64,000 bases of DNA. Source: Sedimentisphaerales bacterium (GTDB taxonomy: Bacteria; Planctomycetota; Phycisphaerae; Sedimentisphaerales; Anaerobacaceae). The stretch covers positions 45,287 through 109,286 of the forward strand of contig DAIOHF010000014.1 of the NCBI GenBank assembly GCA_036744855.1. Direction: 5' to 3'. Below, one piece after another: positions 9,358 through 44,651 of the stretch. The notes under the pieces were generated by a model. The model was not told where the DNA came from. It made no database searches and saw only the letters and a list, made by a program, of their open reading frames with translations. Positions within the stretch are counted from its first letter, which is position 1; each line of letters starts with the position of its first letter. A program made the position numbers and the translations under genes.

Positions 9358-10674
9358 ATGGAGTTGGCAAGGGAAGACCAGGCAGCGGTGGAGAAGCTCC
9401 GCCAGTTGGCGAAGGAGAACCAGATCGACATTGCCGGCGGCAAGCTGCGGCGGACTTCGTCGCGGTTCTGCCTGGGCGTCGAGCACGGCGACTACAACGG
9501 CACCGAACTCTTCGGCGTCGGGACCGACCGCTTCATCTGGATGGCCTACAAGCCCAACGGCACCAAGAAAGTCCGGCTCTTCAGCGGCAACTTCCCCGCC
9601 GACGGCGTCGTCGAGTACACGATCGGCAACGTCCCTGCCCCCAAGTCCGCGGCCATCGCCGACACCTGGGGCCGATTCCCCTACGGCATCGACTACATCC
9701 TGAAGCGCGAGGGCTTCCAACTCAAACAAGGCATCGACGCGGTCCTCTTCGGCAACATCCCCGGCGGCGGCATGAGCCGCTCGGCCTCGCTGTGCATCAA
9801 TCTGATCCTCTCGCTCTTCGACGCCAATGGCGTGGAGGTTCCAAGTTTGAAGTGTCAAGTTTCAAGTGCGGAGGACGCAACCTCCAAGCTTCAAACTTCA
9901 AACTTCAAACTTCAAACTCCTATGCAGATCGTCGATCTCGCCCAGGCGGTCGAGAACGACTACATCGGCTCCCCCTGCGGCAAGCTGGATCAGACGATGG
10001 TCCTGTTCGCCAAGGAAGGCATGGGAACCTACTACAACCCCCAGGACCGCTCGATCGAGTACGTGCCGATCGGCAAAGGGGCCATCGATTTCCGCATCGT
10101 GGTCCTCGACACCGGCACCGACCGGCCGGGCCTGGAGAAGGCGACCTACGCCGTGCGGCGAAGGCAGTGCGAGGAACTGGTCGGCATCCTTCAGAAGGCC
10201 GGCTACAAGATCACCTGCCTGGCCGACGTCAAAGACGAGGCGATGTACAAGAAGATCCTGGACCAGTTCGGCCGCAGCCACGCGGACCTCTGCGACCGAC
10301 TCAATTACATCTACCATGCTCAGCAGCGGTTCTATCAGATGATGGACGCCTGGCGATCCGGCGACGTCGAAAAGGTCGGCGCGATCTTCCGCCAGGACGG
10401 ACTGGGTCTGCGCGACGACTACAAGATCTCCGGGCCGGAACTTGAAACGATGTGCGACGTCGTCCGCACGGTCCCCGGCGTCCTCGGCGAACGCATGCTC
10501 GGCGGCGGCGACAAAGGCGCCTCCGGCGCGCTGGTCCGGGCCGAGAGCGTCGAAGCGGTCAAGCAGGCGGTCGACGCCGCGTATCCGCGAAGCCGGCCCG
10601 CTTTCGCGAACAAATACGCCGCCCACGTCTGTAAAGTGGTGGATGGCGTTCGACTGTATGAGGGCGTCCTTTGA
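9358..10674 (+). CDS. galK: Galactokinase-like GHMP kinase carrying an in-frame palindromic insert
   Basis: GHMP motif GNIPGGGMSRSASLCINLIL and GalK-like AVENDYIGSPCGKLDQ. C-terminal GGGDKGASGALV. A ~25-codon low-complexity insert lies between the two motifs. Confidence 0.75.
   Translation: MELAREDQAAVEKLRQLAKENQIDIAGGKLRRTSSRFCLGVEHGDYNGTELFGVGTDRFIWMAYKPNGTKKVRLFSGNFPADGVVEYTIGNVPAPKSAAIADTWGRFPYGIDYILKREGFQLKQGIDAVLFGNIPGGGMSRSASLCINLILSLFDANGVEVPSLKCQVSSAEDATSKLQTSNFKLQTPMQIVDLAQAVENDYIGSPCGKLDQTMVLFAKEGMGTYYNPQDRSIEYVPIGKGAIDFRIVVLDTGTDRPGLEKATYAVRRRQCEELVGILQKAGYKITCLADVKDEAMYKKILDQFGRSHADLCDRLNYIYHAQQRFYQMMDAWRSGDVEKVGAIFRQDGLGLRDDYKISGPELETMCDVVRTVPGVLGERMLGGGDKGASGALVRAESVEAVKQAVDAAYPRSRPAFANKYAAHVCKVVDGVRLYEGVL
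9842..9918. repeat. About 77-bp imperfect palindrome (TTCAAACTT-periodic arms, GGAGG-ACGCAA-CCTCC centre) inside galK
   Basis: CAAGTTTGAAGTGTCAAGTTTCAAGTGCGGAGG / CCTCCAAGCTTCAAACTTCAAACTTCAAACT read directly. AT-rich relative to the gene. Translated as SLKCQVSSAEDATSKLQTSNFKLQT. Confidence 0.75.
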
Positions 10675-15939: not shown

Positions 15940-16089
15940 GACACGTTCTGAATGGCAAAGGCACGATATCTTGTTTTCCGGCTTCTTGAGACAATGGACC
16001 GCGACAATCACACTGACACAGTAGGGATTCATGCTTTCATTCGCACCACCCAGGCTCTTCGTCGTTCACAAGCCGCCAAGCTCGCGAAA

Positions 16090-16293
16090 TTGGGTTTGTT
16101 TCGCACAGTTGGCCTCTGGGCCTGGGCCGGGCTTTGCGACATTGGCTTCGTTTCGCACAATCGGGCTTTGGCCACGGCGGGGCGACCGCGTCGGGGCACG
16201 ACTGTGCGAAACAAAGCCAATCTACGCTGGACCAAGTGGCACGCGGGCCGGCGAAGGGACTACGACCGGTCAAATTGTGCGAAACGAAGCCAA
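16090..16293. repeat. Nested inverted repeat made of four 18-nt units TTGGSTTYGTTTCGCACA (F,F,R,R)
   Basis: Units at 16090-16107 and 16142-16159 are forward. Units at 16203-16220 and 16276-16293 are reverse complement. All were read directly. Confidence 0.8.
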
Positions 16294-16593
16294 TTCCCGC
16301 TCTTGGGGCCAAGACGCCCCATCCTGTGTCCGCCACCGCAGGCCGGGTGCACCCTCTCCTGCTCTGCCCCGACGAAGGCGGGTCGGGCCGAGACCGAAAT
16401 TGATGTTTCACAGGCGATGGGGTATCCTGGGCCCGTTATGAGATCGCCAAGAGACAAGACAATTGAGAACCAGGCACCTACCAATCGTGGGACGGTCGGC
16501 CTCCCAAACCCGGCGTATCGCCTTTGGGGACCCCAAGCACAAATCCCAAGTCAATTCGGATTCCAGAATCCAAGACTCAAGACGGAGGATTCG

Positions 16594-26219: not shown

Positions 26220-26231
26220 CAGATGGAGTCC

Positions 26232-26297
26232 AATAGGTCCTATCGGTCTTATTCGTCCTATAGGACCGATGGGACCGATAGGACAAATAGGACGAAC
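26232..26297. repeat. 9-bp-periodic palindromic tract (TAGGTCCTA / TAGGACCGA units)
   Basis: AATAGGTCC TATCGGTCT TATTCGTCC TATAGGACC GATGGGACC GATAGGACA AATAGGACG read directly. The orientation flips at the centre. Confidence 0.75.
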
Positions 26298-32168: not shown

Positions 32169-35100
32169 ATGGCTGAGTTGTCGAAGGTGTACGATCCGAA
32201 GGCCGTCGAGGAGCAGATCAACAAGCTCTGGCAGTCGGGGTCCTATTTCCATGCCGAGCCGTCGCGCGACGGGAACAAACGCCCCCCGTTCACGATCGTG
32301 ATCCCCCCGCCGAACGTCACCGCGGCCCTGCACCTGGGACATGCCCTCAACAACACGCTCCAGGACGTCCTGATCCGGTTCCGCAGGATGCAGCAGCGCG
32401 AGACGCTCTGGATGCCCGGCACGGACCACGCCGGCATCGCGACGCAGACGGTCGTCGAGAAGCGAATCCTTTCGGAGGAAGGCAAGCGGCGCACCGACTT
32501 CGCGCGGGAGGAGTTCGTCAAACGCATCCAGGCATGGAAGGACGAATACGAAGCGACGATCCTCGGCCAGCTCAAGGCGATGGGTTGCTCGTGCGACTGG
32601 CAGCGGACCCGCTTCACGATGGACGAGGTCTGCGCCAAGGCGGTCCGCGCAACGTTCTTCAAGCTCTTCCAGGACGGCCTGATCTATCGCGGCAAACGCC
32701 TCGTGAACTGGGACCCGGCCACCCAGACGGTCCTTGCCGACGACGAAGTCGAGCACGAGACGGTCCAAGGCCACTTTTGGTACCTGAAATACCCGCTCGT
32801 TGAGCCGGTCGAGGTGCCGCGTGATGCGGGCATCCTGCCCGCACGTGTCGCGGACGTCCCGTCCGCGAGTGCCGAGGGCGTCCCGCCCTCGGAAATTGGG
32901 CGAGAGCCAACCATCGAGAAGCGAATGGGCCGCTACCTGCCTCACTGGTCCAAGGATGATGCTGTGTACGCCGTCACTTTCCGTCTCGCGGACGCGGTCC
33001 CAGATGACATCTCCGAGGACTGGCGTCTTCAGCGACAGAATATCGTGCAACGTGCCCAGCAACAGGAACATCCACTCAGCTATGACGAACGGGTCGAGCT
33101 GCAAAGACTCCACTCGGCGAAGATCGAAGCCTTCCTCGATGCAGGGCATGGCGATTGTCTTCTCCGAGACCCGCAGGTCGCCCGAATTGTGCAGAATGCA
33201 GTGCGGCACTTCGACCATGAACGGTATGAGATCGTCGCCTGGGCGATCATGCCCAATCATGTGCATGTGGTCGTCAGACCCTTCGCCGGACAGGAGCTAT
33301 CCAAGATCGTTCAGTCCTGGAAGTCTTTTGCAGCCAAGGAAATCAACCGATTGCTCAACCGCCAGGGTTCCCTCTGGATGGATGAGTATTATGACCATCT
33401 GATTCGTGATGAAAAGGACCTCGGGAACCAGGTCAGCTACACGCTCGCAAACCCTGAGAAGGCCGGTTTGCAGAATTGGCCGTGGTATGGCACTATACAC
33501 GGTGAAGAACGAGGGCAGGATGCCCTCGACACGCAAGGGCGGGACGCCCTCGCCACGATGACCTACGTCACCGTCGCCACGACCCGGCCGGAGACGATGC
33601 TGGGCGATACCGCTGTCGCCATGAACCCGGCCGATCCGAGAGCGAAGTCCCTCGTCGGCAAAATGGTCCGCCTGCCCATCGTCGGGCGCGTCATCCCGAT
33701 CATCGCCGACGAGCACGTCGTGCTGCCGAACCCCGAGAGCGAGGACGAGAAGGCCAGGTTCTCCACGGGCTTCTTGAAGGTCACGCCCGCCCACGACCCG
33801 GACGACTGGGCCATCGGGCAAAGGCACAATCTGTCGGTGATCAACGTGATGGCGCCGGACGGCTCGATCAGCGACAAGCACGGCTGGCAGGACGCGACCG
33901 AGCCCGAAGCCCGCAACCTGCTCGGCATGGACCGCTTCGAAGCCCGCGAGGCCATCGTCGAATGGTTCCGCCAGGAAAACCTGCTGGAGGAGATTCGCGA
34001 CTACACCCACGAAGTCGGCCACAGCTACCGCAGCCACGTCCCGATCGAGCCCTACCTGTCCGATCAGTGGTACGTCGCGGTCAAGCAGCCGATCCCGCAC
34101 TTGGCTGAGAAATTCGGTAGCGGCACGATCGAAGGAACCGATGTCCCCGTAAACTCGCTCGCAGGTCTGGCGCTCAAGCCCCTACTCGACAGCCGCCTGC
34201 GGTTCATCCCCGAACGATACGCCAAGACCTATCAGACTTGGCTGGAGAACCTGCGGGACTGGCCGATCAGCCGCCAGCTCTGGTGGGGACACCGCATTCC
34301 GGTGTGGTCCAAGCCCGGCCAGCAGAATGGAACTGCCCTGCCCGCCGGCGTCCATTCCGTCCAAGCGGACACCGACGAAGGTCCGATCGTCTTCGCCTGC
34401 GTCGCTCCTGGTCACGAGGACGTGGAGAAGAAACTCGAATCGCAGGGATGGAAGCGCGACTCCGACGTTCTCGACACGTGGTTCTCGTCGGCCCTCTGGC
34501 CGTTCAGTACGCTGGGCTGGCCGCAGGAGTCACCGACGCTGGAGACCTTCTACCCGGGCGACGTGCTGTGCACCGCCCGCGAGATCATCACGCTGTGGGT
34601 CTCCCGCATGGTGATGATGGGCCAGTACTGCGCGGGCGACATCCCGTTCCGCGATGTGTACATTCACGCGATGATCCAGGACGGCGAAGGCCGTAAGATG
34701 TCCAAGAGTCTGGGCAACGGCATCGATCCGCTCGTCGTGATCGACAGCCACGGCGCCGACGCGATGCGGTTCACCCTGGCGACCATGACGACGGACACGC
34801 AGGACATCCGCATGCCGGTGGCGTCCATGACGCTGCCGGATGGGCGGACCGTGAACACCTCGCCCAAGTTCGACGTCGGCCGCAATTTCTGCAACAAGCT
34901 GTGGAACGCATCGCGGTTCGCGATGATGAATCTCGAAGGGACGGATCCCGCGGGCTTCGACGCGAGCCGACTGGATGTCACCGACCGCTGGATCCTGTCC
35001 CGCCTGGCGACGACCCGCCACGAGGTGACCGCGGCCGTCGAGTCGTTCAAGTTCAGCGAGCCGGTGAACCTCTTGTACCGCTTCTTCTGGAACGACCTGT

Positions 35101-35836: not shown

Positions 35837-36010
35837 GGATTTCCGAAAAACGGCCATTCGACCTATATTCTTCAAGGAAATCTGTTTCACGATTTCCTTG
35901 GAGAATCGATTTAGAGTGTACTCTGGTATGGACGAATTTTCAGGAGGGAGGAATTGCAGGGCAAATTCTTCCCTCCTAAAGTAGGCCGAATAGCCGTTTT
36001 TCGGAGATCC
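35837..36010. repeat. 174-bp AT-rich element with 29-bp terminal inverted repeats (MITE or structured RNA candidate)
   Basis: GGATTTCCGAAAAACGGCCATTCGACCTA (35837-35865) versus TAGGCCGAATAGCCGTTTTTCGGAGATCC (35982-36010). Internal hairpins GGAAATC...GATTTCC and GGAGGGAGGAATT...AATTCTTCCCTCC. Confidence 0.7.
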
Positions 36011-39982: not shown

Positions 39983-41803
39983 ATGAGTCGCATCATCGTC
40001 CTCGATCGCAACATGGTGAACCTGATCGCCGCCGGCGAGGTGGTCGAACGTCCGGCCAGCGTCGTCAAGGAACTGGTGGAGAACAGCATCGACGCCGGGG
40101 CCACGTCCATCACGGTGACGATCGAAGACGGCGGCCGCAAGCTCATCGCCATCAGCGACAACGGCAATGGCATGGACGCGAACGATCTGGAAACCGCCTT
40201 CGAGCCCCACGCGACGAGCAAGGTCAAGGAAGCCGACGACCTGAACCGGATCGCGACGCTCGGATTCCGCGGCGAGGCGCTGGCCAGCATCGCGTCGGTG
40301 TCGCAGGTCCGCGCGGTCAGCCGTACGCCGGACAGCGACCAGGCCCACTGCATCGAGATCGACTGCGGCGAAAAAAGCCCCGTCGCTCCGTGCAGCGGAG
40401 ACGTCGGCACGACGATCCAGGTCCGCGACCTGTTCTACAAGACCCCCGCCCGGCGAAAATTCCTGCGTACCGCCAACACCGAGCTGGGCCACATCACCGA
40501 GCAGTTCGCGAGGATCGCCCTGCCCCAGGGCAACCTGGACCTGGCGTTGATCCACAACGGACGGGAACTGTACCGCCTCTCGAAGACCGAGAGCCTCAAG
40601 CAGCGGGTCGGCCAACTCTTTCCGATGCTCGTCTCGGGGACCGGCGACGACCTGATCGAGACCGAGACCCACGAGAAAGGCATTCGCATCCGAGCCCTGC
40701 TCGGTCTGCCCGGCCTGTCGCGAACGAGCAACCAGTTCCAGTACGCGTTCGTCAACGGCCGCTTCATCCGCGACAAATTCATCTCGCACGCCATCAAGGA
40801 GGCCTATCGCGGCATGCTCGACGCCAACCGCTTCCCGGTGGTGTTCCTCTTCATCGAGATGCCGTTCAGCGAGTACGACGTGAACGTGCATCCCACGAAG
40901 ATCGAGGTTCGGTTCTACAACTCGAACCTGATCCATTCCCAGGTCCTCGGCGTCCTGCGCGAGCGTCTCTTGGGCACCAATCTCAACATCGCGGCCCAGT
41001 TGCCCGCCAGGGAGTCGCCGCCGGGGGACGAAGAAAGCGTCGGTCGGGACCTGCGAAGGCAGCAGATCGCCGACGCGATGGCCGAGTTCTTTCGCAAGCA
41101 GCGACCGGTCCATCAGCAGCAGCAATTCGATCTGCGTGCCGAAAGCGTTCCCGACCGCCGGGAGACGGAATACAGAAGAACGACGATCGACCGGCCCGCT
41201 CCGACTGCGATGTCGTTCCAGGTTCCGGCCCCGGACGTCAGGTATCTGCAGATCCACGACAGCTACATCATCGAGCAGACCGACGAGGGCTTCGTCATCA
41301 TCGATCAGCACGCCCTGCACGAGCGAATGCTCTACGAACTCATGCGGCGACGACTGGAACGAGAACACCTCGAATCCCAGAGACTTCTGCTACCCGAGAG
41401 CTTCGACGTCACCGAGGCGCAGGCCGGGGCGATCGAAAGCCACGCCGACATGCTGACGCAACTGGGCGTCGAGCTGACCGCGTTCGGCCCGCGGACGTAC
41501 GCGATCCAGACCTTTCCGACGATGCTGGCCTCCGTCTCTCCGCTGGAGTTCGTCCACGACCTGCTCGATCTGCTCGTCGAGCGCGGCGACGCGGTGGCCA
41601 GTCGCGACCTGTTCGACGACGTCCTGAACATGGCCGCCTGCAAAGCGGCGATCAAAGCCGGACAGAAACTCACGGACACGGAGATCCGGCAGTTGCTCGC
41701 GGACCGCGAACGGTTCGAATCGACGAGCCGGTGCCCCCACGGCCGGCCGACGACGATCCGATTCTCGATCAGCGAACTGGAGAAGCAATTCAAGAGAACC
41801 TGA
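39983..41803 (+). CDS. mutL: DNA mismatch repair protein MutL
   Basis: LIAAGEVVERPASVVKELVENSIDAGA, DNGNGM and GFRGEAL motifs. C-terminal endonuclease-type domain (QIHDSYII, CPHGRP). Confidence 0.95.
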   Translation: MSRIIVLDRNMVNLIAAGEVVERPASVVKELVENSIDAGATSITVTIEDGGRKLIAISDNGNGMDANDLETAFEPHATSKVKEADDLNRIATLGFRGEALASIASVSQVRAVSRTPDSDQAHCIEIDCGEKSPVAPCSGDVGTTIQVRDLFYKTPARRKFLRTANTELGHITEQFARIALPQGNLDLALIHNGRELYRLSKTESLKQRVGQLFPMLVSGTGDDLIETETHEKGIRIRALLGLPGLSRTSNQFQYAFVNGRFIRDKFISHAIKEAYRGMLDANRFPVVFLFIEMPFSEYDVNVHPTKIEVRFYNSNLIHSQVLGVLRERLLGTNLNIAAQLPARESPPGDEESVGRDLRRQQIADAMAEFFRKQRPVHQQQQFDLRAESVPDRRETEYRRTTIDRPAPTAMSFQVPAPDVRYLQIHDSYIIEQTDEGFVIIDQHALHERMLYELMRRRLEREHLESQRLLLPESFDVTEAQAGAIESHADMLTQLGVELTAFGPRTYAIQTFPTMLASVSPLEFVHDLLDLLVERGDAVASRDLFDDVLNMAACKAAIKAGQKLTDTEIRQLLADRERFESTSRCPHGRPTTIRFSISELEKQFKRT

Positions 41804-42759
41804 TGCGTAAATGGTGGCTTCTATCGGCGGCGACGGTGCTGTGGATGGCGTCCGGATACGCCCTCGTGCGATCCAGCGCCGGCCCCAAAAGGGGACATTC
41901 TACTCTTTCACACGAAGGCGGCCCCGCGGCTCAAGGGAACGAGGGAAAAGTAGAATGTCCCCTTTGTCCGCAAATCCCGGCACGGATCGTCTCGATGGCG
42001 CCGAACCTCACGGAGATCCTCTTTGCCATCGGTCTCGGTCCCAGCGTCGTCGGCGTGACGCAGGACAGCGACTACCCCCCTGCTGCGAAGGACAAGCCTC
42101 GGGTCGGCACGTTCTGGCAGCCGAACATCGAGGCGATCATCGCGACCCGCCCCGATCTGGTCGTAACCGAGACGTTCGAGCAGCACAGGGACCTGGCCAG
42201 GAGACTGCAACGCATGGGCTACGACAGCCTGATGGTCGACGTGGACACGATCCGCGGGTTGTACGAGGGCATCCTCGCGATCGGCCGGACCGCAGGCTCA
42301 ACTCGACAGGCCCAGACGCTGTGCGAAGACATGCAGACCCAGATCGACCGGCTCGTCGCCGCGACCGCCGGGCGGCCCCGCGTGAAAGTGCTCTGGGTCG
42401 TCCAGAGAGAACCGCTCCGAGTGGCGGGACGGGCGACGTTCGTCAACGAAATGATCGAGCTGGCCGGCGGGGAGAACGCCGTCGGCCCGACCCTGCACGT
42501 GTATCCCGCCATCGGGGCCGAGCAGGTGATCGCCGCAGCTCCCGAGGTCATTATCGAGCCGGCCATGCTGCCGGGCACGCTGGACGAGCAGCGGATTCAG
42601 GCGACATCGTATTGGAACCGATTCGCGAATGTCCCGGCCGTCCGAACCGGACGCATCTGCGTGATCGACGGCGACGTCGTTTCCCGGCTGGGCCCCCGGC
42701 TGCCCGAGGGCGTCGAGACGATTTCCCGGTGTCTTCACCCGGGCTTGTTCGGAGACTGA
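41803..42759 (+). CDS. ABC-transporter periplasmic binding protein, BtuF/FecB (PBP type 2) family, with an in-frame palindromic insert after the signal peptide
   Basis: ATG overlaps the mutL stop codon (TGATG). RIVSMAPNLTEILFAIGL...VVGVT...PDLVV pattern of the PF01497-type family. Confidence 0.8.
   Translation: MRKWWLLSAATVLWMASGYALVRSSAGPKRGHSTLSHEGGPAAQGNEGKVECPLCPQIPARIVSMAPNLTEILFAIGLGPSVVGVTQDSDYPPAAKDKPRVGTFWQPNIEAIIATRPDLVVTETFEQHRDLARRLQRMGYDSLMVDVDTIRGLYEGILAIGRTAGSTRQAQTLCEDMQTQIDRLVAATAGRPRVKVLWVVQREPLRVAGRATFVNEMIELAGGENAVGPTLHVYPAIGAEQVIAAAPEVIIEPAMLPGTLDEQRIQATSYWNRFANVPAVRTGRICVIDGDVVSRLGPRLPEGVETISRCLHPGLFGD
41888..41965. repeat. 78-bp palindromic element (perfect 16-bp arms AAAGGGGACATTCTAC / GTAGAATGTCCCCTTT) inside the binding-protein gene
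   Basis: The arms at 41888-41903 and 41950-41965 are exact reverse complements. Length is 26 codons. Translated as KRGHSTLSHEGGPAAQGNEGKVECPL. Confidence 0.85.
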
Positions 42760-42762
42760 CGA

Positions 42763-43794
42763 GTGCACCCATCCCTGACGCCCAGAATGCTGCTGTTGCG
42801 AACGAGCCTCGCGGCCATCCTGCTCGCGGCGGTTCTGCTGGCCTGCTCGCTGGTGGGCCCGCAGGAGATTTCGCTGAAGGCGGCGCTGCAAGGCGGTCAA
42901 GTCGCAGGGGTTCCCAATCCGGATTATGAAATCCTCGTGCAGGTTCGAATTCCGCGAGTGTTGCTGGCTGCGATGGTCGGAGCGGCGTTGGCTGCTTCCG
43001 GCGTGATCTTCCAGGCCTTGCTGCGGAATCCGCTGGCCGATCCCTACATCCTCGGCGTTTCCAGTGGAGCGGGTCTCGGCGCGATGCTCGCTGTGATCGG
43101 CGGCTTGGGCTGGACCCTCTGGGGACGGTCCCCCATCGCGGTCTTCGCGTTCCTCGGGGCCCTGGGCACCGTCTGGCTGGTCTGGGCCCTCGGGCGCATC
43201 ACCGGAAAGTACCAGGTCACCGGACTGCTGCTGGCCGGGGTGGTCGTCAACGCGTTCTTCTCGGCGATGATCATGTTTCTCATTTCGATCGCCAAGAGCC
43301 AGCATCTCTACGCGACCCTCTTCTGGCTGATGGGCAACATGACCGAGGAGGATTGGTTCGTCCTCTGGGTCGGCGGCGGCTGCATCCTGGCCGGCATCGT
43401 GGCGCTGTTCTTTCTCGGTCCGCAACTCAACATCATCAGCGTCGGACGCCAGGACGCGCGGAGCGTCGGCGTTCGCGTTGAACGGGTCGAACTGGTCGCT
43501 TTCGCCATCTCGGCGTTCATCACCGCTGTGGCGGTCAGTCTCAGCGGACTCATCGGGTTTGTCGGCCTGATCGTGCCCCACGCGGTGCGACTGGTCTTCG
43601 GACCCGACCATCGCCAGCTCGTGCCCTTGAGCAGCCTGGTCGGAGCGATGTTCCTCGTCGTGGCCGACACGTTGGCGAGAATGGTCGTGGCGCCCGCCCA
43701 GTTGCCGGTCGGGGTGGTCACCGCCATGATCGGCGGCCCGTTCTTCCTATTCCTGCTCGTTACGCACAGCAAGAAGGTATACTGGGCGACATGA
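42763..43794 (+). CDS. Iron-siderophore/cobalamin ABC transporter permease (FecCD/BtuC family)
   Basis: About 9-10 TM segments. RIPRVLLAAMVGAALAASGVIFQALLRNPLADPYILGVSSGA signature. Confidence 0.9.
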   Translation: MHPSLTPRMLLLRTSLAAILLAAVLLACSLVGPQEISLKAALQGGQVAGVPNPDYEILVQVRIPRVLLAAMVGAALAASGVIFQALLRNPLADPYILGVSSGAGLGAMLAVIGGLGWTLWGRSPIAVFAFLGALGTVWLVWALGRITGKYQVTGLLLAGVVVNAFFSAMIMFLISIAKSQHLYATLFWLMGNMTEEDWFVLWVGGGCILAGIVALFFLGPQLNIISVGRQDARSVGVRVERVELVAFAISAFITAVAVSLSGLIGFVGLIVPHAVRLVFGPDHRQLVPLSSLVGAMFLVVADTLARMVVAPAQLPVGVVTAMIGGPFFLFLLVTHSKKVYWAT

Positions 43795-44651
43795 CTCCCG
43801 CGATCGAGGTCAGACAGGTGAGCTTCGAATACGGCCCGCACAGGCCGGTCCTGACGGGCCTCGATCTCGGCGTGCGTTCCGGGACCTTCCTGGCAGTGGC
43901 CGGTCCGAACGGGGCCGGCAAGAGCACCCTCATCCATCTCATGGCCGGGATGCTCAGGCCCCAGTCCGGCGCCGTGTTTCTGGAGGGCAGGGACCTGCGT
44001 TCCTACAGCGCGCGAAACCTGGCCCGGAAGATCGCACTGGTCCGACAGGAGTTCGTTCCGGCCTTCGGGTTCTCGGTCTACGAAACCGTCCTGATGGCCA
44101 GGACCTCCTGCTACGGCCAGTGGGGTTTCGAGAGTCGCAGGGACCGCGAGACAGTCGCCAGGGCTCTCGAACGAACCGACACCGCGAGATTCGCCTCCCG
44201 ACCGCTGGGCAGCCTCAGCGCCGGCGAACGACAACGCGTCTTCATCGCCAGGGCCCTGGCCCAGGACACCCCGATCCTGCTCCTGGACGAGCCCACGTCC
44301 TTCCTCGACATCAGACACCAGGTCGGCATCTACGATCTTCTGAAATCCATCCAGCAGGAGAAGGCTTCCACAATCGTCGCGGTGACCCACGAGATCAACC
44401 TGGCCTCGCAGTACTGCGACGAAGCCCTGTTGCTCTATCCCGACCGGCGAGACGATCCTTCTTCAGCCGATCCGGCCTCTTCTGCGAACTACCGCATCGG
44501 CTCGACCCGCGAGGTTTTCGCGCCCGGAGAGATCCGGCGGGCATTCGGCGTCGGCATCTTCTCCGGCGTCCTGGGCTCGGAACGGTTCGTCCTGCCTCTG
44601 GGCGAAAGAGCCAAAGACGCCAACCTCCTGCGCCCTCCCAACGTAGTATAG
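43791..44651 (+). CDS. ABC transporter ATP-binding protein (FecE/BtuD-like)
   Basis: GPNGAGKST Walker A, LSAGERQRV signature and LLLDEPTS Walker B. Overlaps the permease stop codon by 4 nt. Confidence 0.9.
   Translation: MTPAIEVRQVSFEYGPHRPVLTGLDLGVRSGTFLAVAGPNGAGKSTLIHLMAGMLRPQSGAVFLEGRDLRSYSARNLARKIALVRQEFVPAFGFSVYETVLMARTSCYGQWGFESRRDRETVARALERTDTARFASRPLGSLSAGERQRVFIARALAQDTPILLLDEPTSFLDIRHQVGIYDLLKSIQQEKASTIVAVTHEINLASQYCDEALLLYPDRRDDPSSADPASSANYRIGSTREVFAPGEIRRAFGVGIFSGVLGSERFVLPLGERAKDANLLRPPNVV

Follow-up and report, generated by a model that had tools for sequence, protein, structure and literature searches.

What is a perfect palindrome doing in frame inside the gene of a periplasmic binding protein? 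The question was raised by a 64,000-nucleotide stretch of a Sedimentisphaerales bacterium genome (GCA_036744855.1, contig DAIOHF010000014.1, positions 45,287 to 109,286), referred to below as the window. The palindrome lies within a btuF-like gene next to mutL, and it is very probably a non-autonomous, REPIN-like copy of two inverted repeats of a TIRtron, placed in frame in the linker of that gene. To begin with, AAAGGGGACATTCTAC (41888-41903) and its exact reverse complement (41950-41965) enclose 46 nt, and the palindrome reported in the first-pass annotation (78 bp, perfect 16-bp arms, 26 codons) was confirmed, while arm pairing was found to reach 20 nt at 95% (41888-41907 / 41946-41965). 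The number of matches expected by chance was 0.02, and none of 100 shuffles contained two of them. No further copy of AAAGGGGACATTCTAC was found in the 64-kb window. Moreover, the insert in codon register (41887-41964) comprises 78 nt, a number divisible by three, and is read as aa 29-54 (KRGHSTLSHEGGPAAQGNEGKVECPL), the predicted tryptic peptide of the element-bearing host protein being GHSTLSHEGGPAAQGNEGK. Folding of the region as RNA gave -45.2 kcal/mol (z = -2.9). An identity with a known RNA, terminator or promoter was rejected after Rfam and consensus scans, as the Rfam 15 covariance models had zero matches over 41700-42150 (E up to 1), no terminator-like site appeared in 41500-42400 and no promoter-like site was found; furthermore, the loop measures 38-46 nt and just three T follow the stem, which is not the form of an intrinsic terminator (a GC-rich short stem, a loop of 3-8 nt and a U tract). 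A phage origin was likewise rejected, the exact arm being absent from viral contigs.

The palindrome belongs to a dispersed repeat family. The genome of the window (G000) comprises 7.28 Mb in 231 contigs with 61.8% GC, its assembly being 98.5% complete with 7.5% estimated contamination. A genome-wide search for the arm and its complement, as the first-pass annotation had proposed, yielded 22 exact hits, which form 15 pairs (55-87 bp, six of them 78 bp) plus two solo arms. The arm conserved in the family, (A)AAAGGGGACATTCTRCTTTTTC, is longer than the 16 nt first noted, and the 13-45 nt between the arms are unlike between most copies, a few of which have a common centre. Across 24 genomes of the genus, the number of arm pairs ranged from 0 to ~100 (~100 in G007, ~55 in G003, ~35 in G022 and ~28 in G013), and the dominant length class differed genome by genome. 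For the 55-bp class (28 copies), positions 1-22 pair in 86-100% of copies, with a variable centre. In a wider sample of 251 genomes spanning the order, 18 had the exact arm, at low copy and mainly as solo arms in other families. This recurrence, together with the swing in copy number and the predicted disorder of the inserted region described below, bears out the earlier proposal of a miniature inverted-repeat transposable element (MITE)- or repetitive extragenic palindrome (REP)-like sequence in a tolerated linker. As a separate observation, the 55-bp core in G007 (loci L029-L047, e.g. L031:2850-3050) often sits mid-way in a palindromic repeat of ~190 bp, with outer ends GGGTGCATGACCGTTCCTGCGCGGG.. 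/ ..GCAAGAACGGTCATGCACCC; a few copies there carry other outer modules, and hence the core is modular.

In genomes of other families of the order, the arms are the terminal inverted repeats (TIRs) of a Y1/HUH transposase element. In particular, two arms of a G130 locus (L257), located at 1580-1601 and 2299-2321, flank an open reading frame (ORF) of 222 aa (1641-2309), which reads MPRTAR..NHFHLVL..RYVESNALRA..LGLEYTIRPRGRPRKRAEK, matches the Pfam family Y1_Tnp (IS200-like) with an E-value of 2e-13 and takes its TAG stop from the GTAG of the right arm. This ORF carries both an HUH motif (NHFHLVL) and a putative catalytic-tyrosine motif (RYVESNALRA). Furthermore, G051 has an arm-bounded unit of ~395 bp, and G126 has two of ~270 bp that retain the start (MPR..) and the last ~50 codons; these units are internal-deletion derivatives, which gives a size series of 745 bp (G130), ~395 bp (G051), ~270 bp (G126) and 55-90 bp (the genus). 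A frameshifted remnant of a Y1 gene ending in the arm was also present in the congener G013. As the arms flank a Y1/HUH transposase gene in these relatives, the short elements, including that of the window, are REPIN-like dimers of TIRtron inverted repeats. A parent insertion sequence of the DDE type was considered and rejected, since arm pairs 0.5-5 kb apart and the neighbours of solo arms in G007 gave ordinary genes alone. A second type of TIRtron was observed in the genus (L259:1424-1452 / 2153-2181, corresponding to G000:C30, as well as L258 and L260), with a gene of ~220-245 aa resembling REP-associated tyrosine transposases (RAYTs) between 27-29-bp TIRs (GAATTAAAGGTGTCCGGTACGTTTTT); these TIRs have an AAAGG..TAC.TTTT layout in common with the arms studied here.

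Four copies lie well inside genes in the genome of the window, namely in the btuF-like gene, an HGD-D family gene, a CBS-GGDEF-HD gene and an MMPL/RND transporter gene. Each of them is 78 bp long, reads KRGHS(T/A)FS..K(V/A)ECPL and is located between Pfam domains, while two more copies provide genes with their final codons and stop, one of these genes coding for a TolC-like OEP protein. The first-pass annotation had taken in-frame insertion to be a genome-wide phenomenon rather than chance, which is supported by the 78-bp in-frame copies in the HGD-D, CBS-GGDEF-HD and MMPL genes and by a repeat of another family at 9835-9917. It had also suggested a test for length bias, which was carried out on G000 plus samples from G007, G013 and G003, genes outside the window being called by an ORF and third-codon-position GC (GC3) filter plus Pfam. 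All 14 deep-intragenic copies were divisible by three, compared to 10 of 54 intergenic ones (Fisher P = 1.6e-8). Three further copies called as inside genes were not divisible by three; they lie within 17-42 codons of an ORF start that had been extended crudely, and the true start is probably located downstream of them. Regarding the frame, intragenic copies read either KRGHSTFS..KVECPLF (10 copies) or KGTFYFF..KSRMSPF (4 copies), and the remaining third frame runs into the TAG of the arm. Selection acts on the length and frame of intragenic copies. The intergenic ones are mostly found directly past the 3' ends of genes, often between convergent genes. Moreover, the MMPL copy was unique among 120 orthologues, and the MMPL and GGDEF copies were absent in relatives 97% identical in DNA, which therefore indicates recent activity. 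The HGD-D linker, for its part, has received at least three insertions of the arm family as well as inserts of other repeat families.

Some further observations concern copies at or between genes. The 78-bp copy at G000:C22:57160-57237 gives the last ~20 codons (..EKGDILLFSLSAPPTDDSLGKK) and the stop of the TolC-like OEP gene, whose N-terminus holds SEDSACRCRP; a similar insert, SSEDSACRCH, is found in the HGD-D orthologues P0334-P0336, and both look like another translated repeat family. At L032:943-2619 (G007:C274), a single open frame of 558 aa has an N-terminal half resembling alcohol dehydrogenases and a C-terminal half resembling glyoxalase/VOC proteins, bridged by a three-armed copy (left, left, right); read-through of an intergenic element may have fused two genes here.

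The btuF-like gene starts with the ATG at 41803, whose overlap with the mutL stop reads ATGA, and the N-terminus read from this ATG (M.KWWLL..) is common to more than 100 orthologues; the element is therefore within the coding sequence and not in a 5' untranslated region. Accordingly, a misannotated start, which the first-pass annotation had also considered unlikely, is highly improbable: an ATG is indeed present at M65 within RIVSMAPNLTE, but starting there would cut the first strand and drop the hydrophobic N-terminus, which is required in a periplasmic binding protein. The element was confirmed to lie between the putative signal peptide and this strand. The closest solved structures in the PDB are BtuF and heme- and iron-binding proteins, matching from aa 58-61, and taken together the Pfam and PDB matches start at aa 58-62, past the insert. 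The AlphaFold model has a helix at aa 4-23, a predicted local distance difference test score (pLDDT) <50 at aa 23-52 and a fold from aa 61, so that the inserted peptide is predicted to be a disordered stretch of linker. As for the comparison with orthologues that had been suggested, most binding proteins proved to be without the peptide (297-298 aa vs. 318 aa). Among the 22 congeners having the gene just two carry the insert, and no element was present in the fetched Phycisphaerae representatives outside the genus. The linker has 51-52 residues in ~100 orthologues, distant Phycisphaerae included. The btuF-like linker thus tolerates the insert. That the palindrome is a misassembly or chimera in a metagenome-assembled genome, for which the 231 contigs and the estimated contamination might speak, is barely conceivable, since independent assemblies from other samples (L001, L004, L005, L055 and G007) have identical arms at the corresponding position of the gene.

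The comparison of filled and empty sites revealed that native sequence had been lost at each of them. At the MMPL site, compared to a relative 96.9% identical whose flanks are identical over >100 bp, 23 nt (AACCTGCAGCGGACTCCCTGGGT) were lost and 92 nt inserted (net +69), and at the GGDEF site, compared to a relative 97.1% identical, 26 nt were lost and 95 nt inserted (net +69). For the btuF-like gene of the window (L007 vs. L010, the flanks aligning by codon), 87 nt (41884-41970) stand in place of 24 nt of the G004-type linker (net +63). The change is therefore not a clean addition of 78 nt. Three other btuF sites had lost 21 nt for an insert of 81 nt (L005 vs. L021, net +60), ~33 nt for 84 nt (L004 vs. 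L020, net +51) and 45 nt for 60 nt (G007 vs. L018, net +15). These six comparisons, of which two are near-isogenic pairs (MMPL and GGDEF), are those on which replacement rests. No target duplication was found at any of the six sites and no consistent flanking repeat among the 15 copies of the window's genome, so the insertion proceeds without target duplication. Moreover, the net change in the near-isogenic pairs is divisible by three although loss and gain, taken singly, are not, which makes a single event more likely than an insertion followed by a compensating deletion, and target replacement would then occur in one step.

A broader scheme can be proposed, although only tentatively and as a doubtful one, in which a target of ~21-45 nt goes out and the palindrome plus a few bases comes in by a one-step swap, the copy later collapses to a footprint of 18-21 nt, and permissive inter-domain linkers are in this way overwritten repeatedly with their length kept. 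If true, the one-step swap would point, speculatively, to two-site strand exchange by a Y1 enzyme or to template switching at a hairpin. To our knowledge, no REP, REPIN, TIR or MITE element has been described with a replacement mode of this sort, and target replacement upon insertion is possibly a new feature. Two other mechanisms were rejected. Capture at a double-strand break via Ku-dependent end joining was discarded because no Ku homologue was found in G000 (98.5% complete). Insertion of the arms around native sequence, as the btuF centre GGPAAQ against the native APAVRR might suggest, was discarded as the general route, given that a single type of centre is present at three unrelated loci (C2:174354, C2:239816 and C26:48990). 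Beside the GGDEF site, it was also observed that a short tandem repeat of AATCTCA units (..SEISDLKSQISDG..) occupies, in the empty allele (L059), the very place at which G000 lost its 26 nt.

A maximum-likelihood tree of the mature domain, including 116 orthologues, was used to follow the btuF linker. Intact copies appeared in at least five separate places (P0001, P0002, P0034, which corresponds to G007, P0021/P0029/P0033, P0032 and P0045), with the sisters of P0001 (P0003 and P0009) being empty. Decayed copies were present in P0039, the sister of P0032, and in the clade of P0062, P0046 and P0079. Finally, collapsed footprints were found as ..AKGECPFF.. in P0054-56, P0065, P0080 and P0098, and as GAAAGGGGAGTGTCCCTTTTT in G021, the footprint bringing the linker back to 51-52 residues, the length typical of ~100 orthologues.

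Several of these results weigh against a selfish, non-autonomous TIRtron derivative. Firstly, copies in the btuF linker, whether intact, decayed or collapsed, are spread over at least 6-7 scattered lineages, and the centres of the btuF copies are closer to each other than to those of other copies, a combination of linker reuse and centre likeness that could reflect host-level selection or allele transfer. Secondly, the replacement of 21-45 nt of target departs from the textbook behaviour of IS200/IS605-type elements, which insert beside a short target without loss. Thirdly, none of the five Y1_Tnp hits of the window's genome has an arm within 2.5 kb, and a different TIR, GAATTAAAGGTGTCCGGTAC.., is borne by the most similar intact homologues within the genus (41-47% identity). 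Any Y1 gene of G000 was accordingly rejected as the partner, as was the RAYT nested in valS, the REPs of which (GCGGGCATCCTGCCCGC type) are unrelated to the arms.

The first point could be accommodated by a hairpin recruited by the host, acting in attenuation, processing or stabilisation of the mutL-btuF-fecCD transcript or slowing translation after the signal sequence, and kept by selection. The repeated occupation of the linker would be expected from it, and so would the conservation between the window copy and L001 (identity of 39/40 positions for the arms, compared to 27/38 for the centre and 83% for the remainder of the gene), the mutual best matches among the btuF centres, and the preference of intergenic copies for 3' ends of genes. 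However, most orthologues, the closest included, are without the element, and sister lineages let it decay (L056, compared to the perfect arms of its sister L055) or collapse it to 18-21 nt (L022 and the P0054 clade). Furthermore, the HGD-D linker was hit repeatedly, by several unrelated families, which indicates permissive sites, and the scans described above gave no Rfam family, terminator-like or promoter-like site. Recruitment is thus considered unlikely, and reuse of the btuF linker looks like that of a permissive linker under a high insertion flux rather than a btuF-specific function, given that the HGD-D linker is reused as well.

The likeness of the centres bears more directly on another possibility, namely that all btuF copies stem from one old insertion, or from an allele spread by homologous recombination, followed by many losses. 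The four best centre matches of the window copy include the btuF copies L001, L055 and L005, the right junction is almost constant (..ECPL F P[SA]RIV) and a single reading frame is kept across all btuF copies. Nevertheless, this likeness comes in part from the extended arms and the common reading frame, while left junctions (aa 23-31) and lengths (57 bp in G007 vs. 78 bp) both vary, and insert-free sisters keep a native linker (50-51 aa), conserved in its sequence and length well past the genus, which could not be regenerated once replaced. A single origin is therefore possible but not favoured, and the differing left junctions and lengths, together with the intact native linkers of sisters, argue for several independent events in btuF.

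Returning to the non-autonomous TIRtron copy as the preferred explanation, a Y1 transposase acting on single-stranded hairpin DNA would mobilise the palindrome, which would enter the btuF-like gene where an unstructured linker joins the N-terminal helix to the binding fold, the arriving copy replacing ~24 nt of native linker. It would survive there because it is stop-free, a multiple of three in length and adds a mere disordered stretch of 26 residues. The window copy would then be without host function.

The elements were also compared with known systems. TIRtrons or TIRYTs consist of RAYT-like genes between TIRs whose copies form repeat families, with a GGGGWSAS motif in a subset of the published TIRs (Di Nocera et al. 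2013, PMC3733652). The present family is similar in its RAYT-like Y1/HUH gene inside inverted repeats (found in G130, not in G000), in TIR copies dispersed singly or as inverted dimers, and in a 3' TIR that overlaps the gene end, with some copies within ORFs. As regards the motif, which is GGGG-led here too, GGGGACAT of the arm fits GGGGWSAS at 7/8 positions, bearing in mind that GGGGWSAS itself is limited to some published TIRs. The present family differs in that the cognate transposase was not found in G000, intragenic copies are frequent and always in frame, and 21-45 nt of target are replaced. With the REPIN/REP-RAYT systems of Pseudomonas and E. coli it shares inverted conserved units around a less conserved spacer, a long hairpin, no target duplication, a link to a Y1 transposase, a copy number variable among relatives and a preference for sites downstream of genes. 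In contrast to a REP unit, which is an imperfect palindrome of 20-40 nt with GTAG at one end, the arm AAAAGGGGACATTCTACTTTTTC is not self-complementary, and its GTAG/CTAC is internal rather than a 5' tag.

Rickettsia palindromic elements (RPEs) are found in frame in unrelated housekeeping genes (Ogata et al. 2000, cited after the review PMC10969869), and they are CGTC-tagged without a linked dedicated transposase (PMC3733652). Both families are in-frame palindromes read as an extra peptide at positions compatible with the fold; however, RPEs (~100-150 bp, CGTC tag) differ in sequence, length, tag and host phylum, and a Y1 partner was identified here. Finally, classical MITEs (Correia/NEMIS, RUP, ERIC and Nezha) are also non-coding and short, have inverted repeats of 15-30 bp and can fuse with ORFs, and derivation from an autonomous element by internal deletion is a common trait (745, 395, 270 and 55-90 bp in the present case), but here there is no target-site duplication and the parent encodes a Y1/HUH instead of a DDE transposase. 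The MITE/REP-like label given in the first-pass annotation is thus supported, with the refinement that the element is not a MITE of the classical DDE type. The sequence family of Sedimentisphaerales-type Planctomycetota is new, while its kind, inverted-repeat dimers associated with TIRYTs/RAYTs, is already known.

These results provide a concrete origin for the in-frame palindromes of this group of Planctomycetota, namely the end-repeats of a Y1/HUH transposase element, and extend selfish DNA within genes of the Rickettsia type to free-living bacteria with large genomes. Moreover, the 14 of 14 in-frame copies, the two near-isogenic pairs and the intact, decayed and collapsed series at one linker constitute a natural data set that bears on how elements enter genes, what selection permits and how linkers are rewritten. 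For annotation, peptides such as KRGHSTFS..KVECPLF or KGTFYFF..KSRMSPF are to be expected in such genomes and should not be taken as functional motifs. The coordinates of the element and of its host operon are listed in Table 1.

Table 1. Position of the palindromic element, its host gene and the neighbouring genes within the window.
Feature	Position	Strand	Description
mutL	39983..41803	+	606 aa; TGA stop overlaps the ATG of the next gene; orthologous loci with HATPase_c_3, DNA_mis_repair and MutL_C
BtuF/FhuD-type periplasmic binding protein gene, host of the element	41803..42759	+	318 aa; Pfam Peripla_BP_2 at aa 62-290, E 1.1e-31
N-terminal hydrophobic helix, signal peptide or membrane anchor	41812..41871	+	aa 4-23; AlphaFold helix; M.KWWLL..LW.. 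conserved
Changed block, 87 nt	41884..41970	+	G004-type empty linker has 24 nt (CGGGCGTCCGAGGTCCCGCGGCGA); net +63 nt = 21 codons
Palindromic element, 78 bp	41888..41965	.	Dimer of transposase-element terminal inverted repeats, translated as aa 29-54
Left arm AAAGGGGACATTCTACTCTT	41888..41907	.	Family consensus AAAAGGGGACATTCTRCTTTTTC
Variable centre	41908..41945	.	Most similar to the centres of further btuF copies (L001: 27/38 nt identical)
Right arm AAAAGTAGAATGTCCCCTTT	41946..41965	.	In the autonomous element, its GTAG supplies the TAG stop of the transposase gene
First conserved strand RIVSMAPNLTE, start of the folded domain	41983..42015	+	aa 61-71; invariant alignment columns; AlphaFold strand 62-64
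FecCD-type ABC permease gene, same operon	42763..43794	+	Pfam FecCD in orthologous loci
ABC transporter ATPase gene, same operon	43791..44651	+	Pfam ABC_tran in orthologous loci

Other repeats were also present in the window, and the genome of the window holds many palindromic repeat families. Three palindromic repeat elements with unrelated sequences were located at 26228-26293, 35837-36010 and 16089-16294. The AT-rich palindromic repeat at 9835-9917 (GTTCCAAGTTTGAAGTGTCAAG..), mentioned above, is open in frame in an ORF of 445 aa with coding-type GC3 and is translated as EVPSLKCQVSSAEDATSKLQTSNFKLQT. In addition, the REP hairpins at 32820-32891 and 33510-33557, flanking the RAYT nested in valS, are translated as ..GRDALDTQGRDA.., and a similar peptide, GRDARDTRGQ, was found as a linker insert in the HGD-D orthologues P0266 and P0345; this peptide similarity suggests that the valS-type REP family may also enter linkers in frame.

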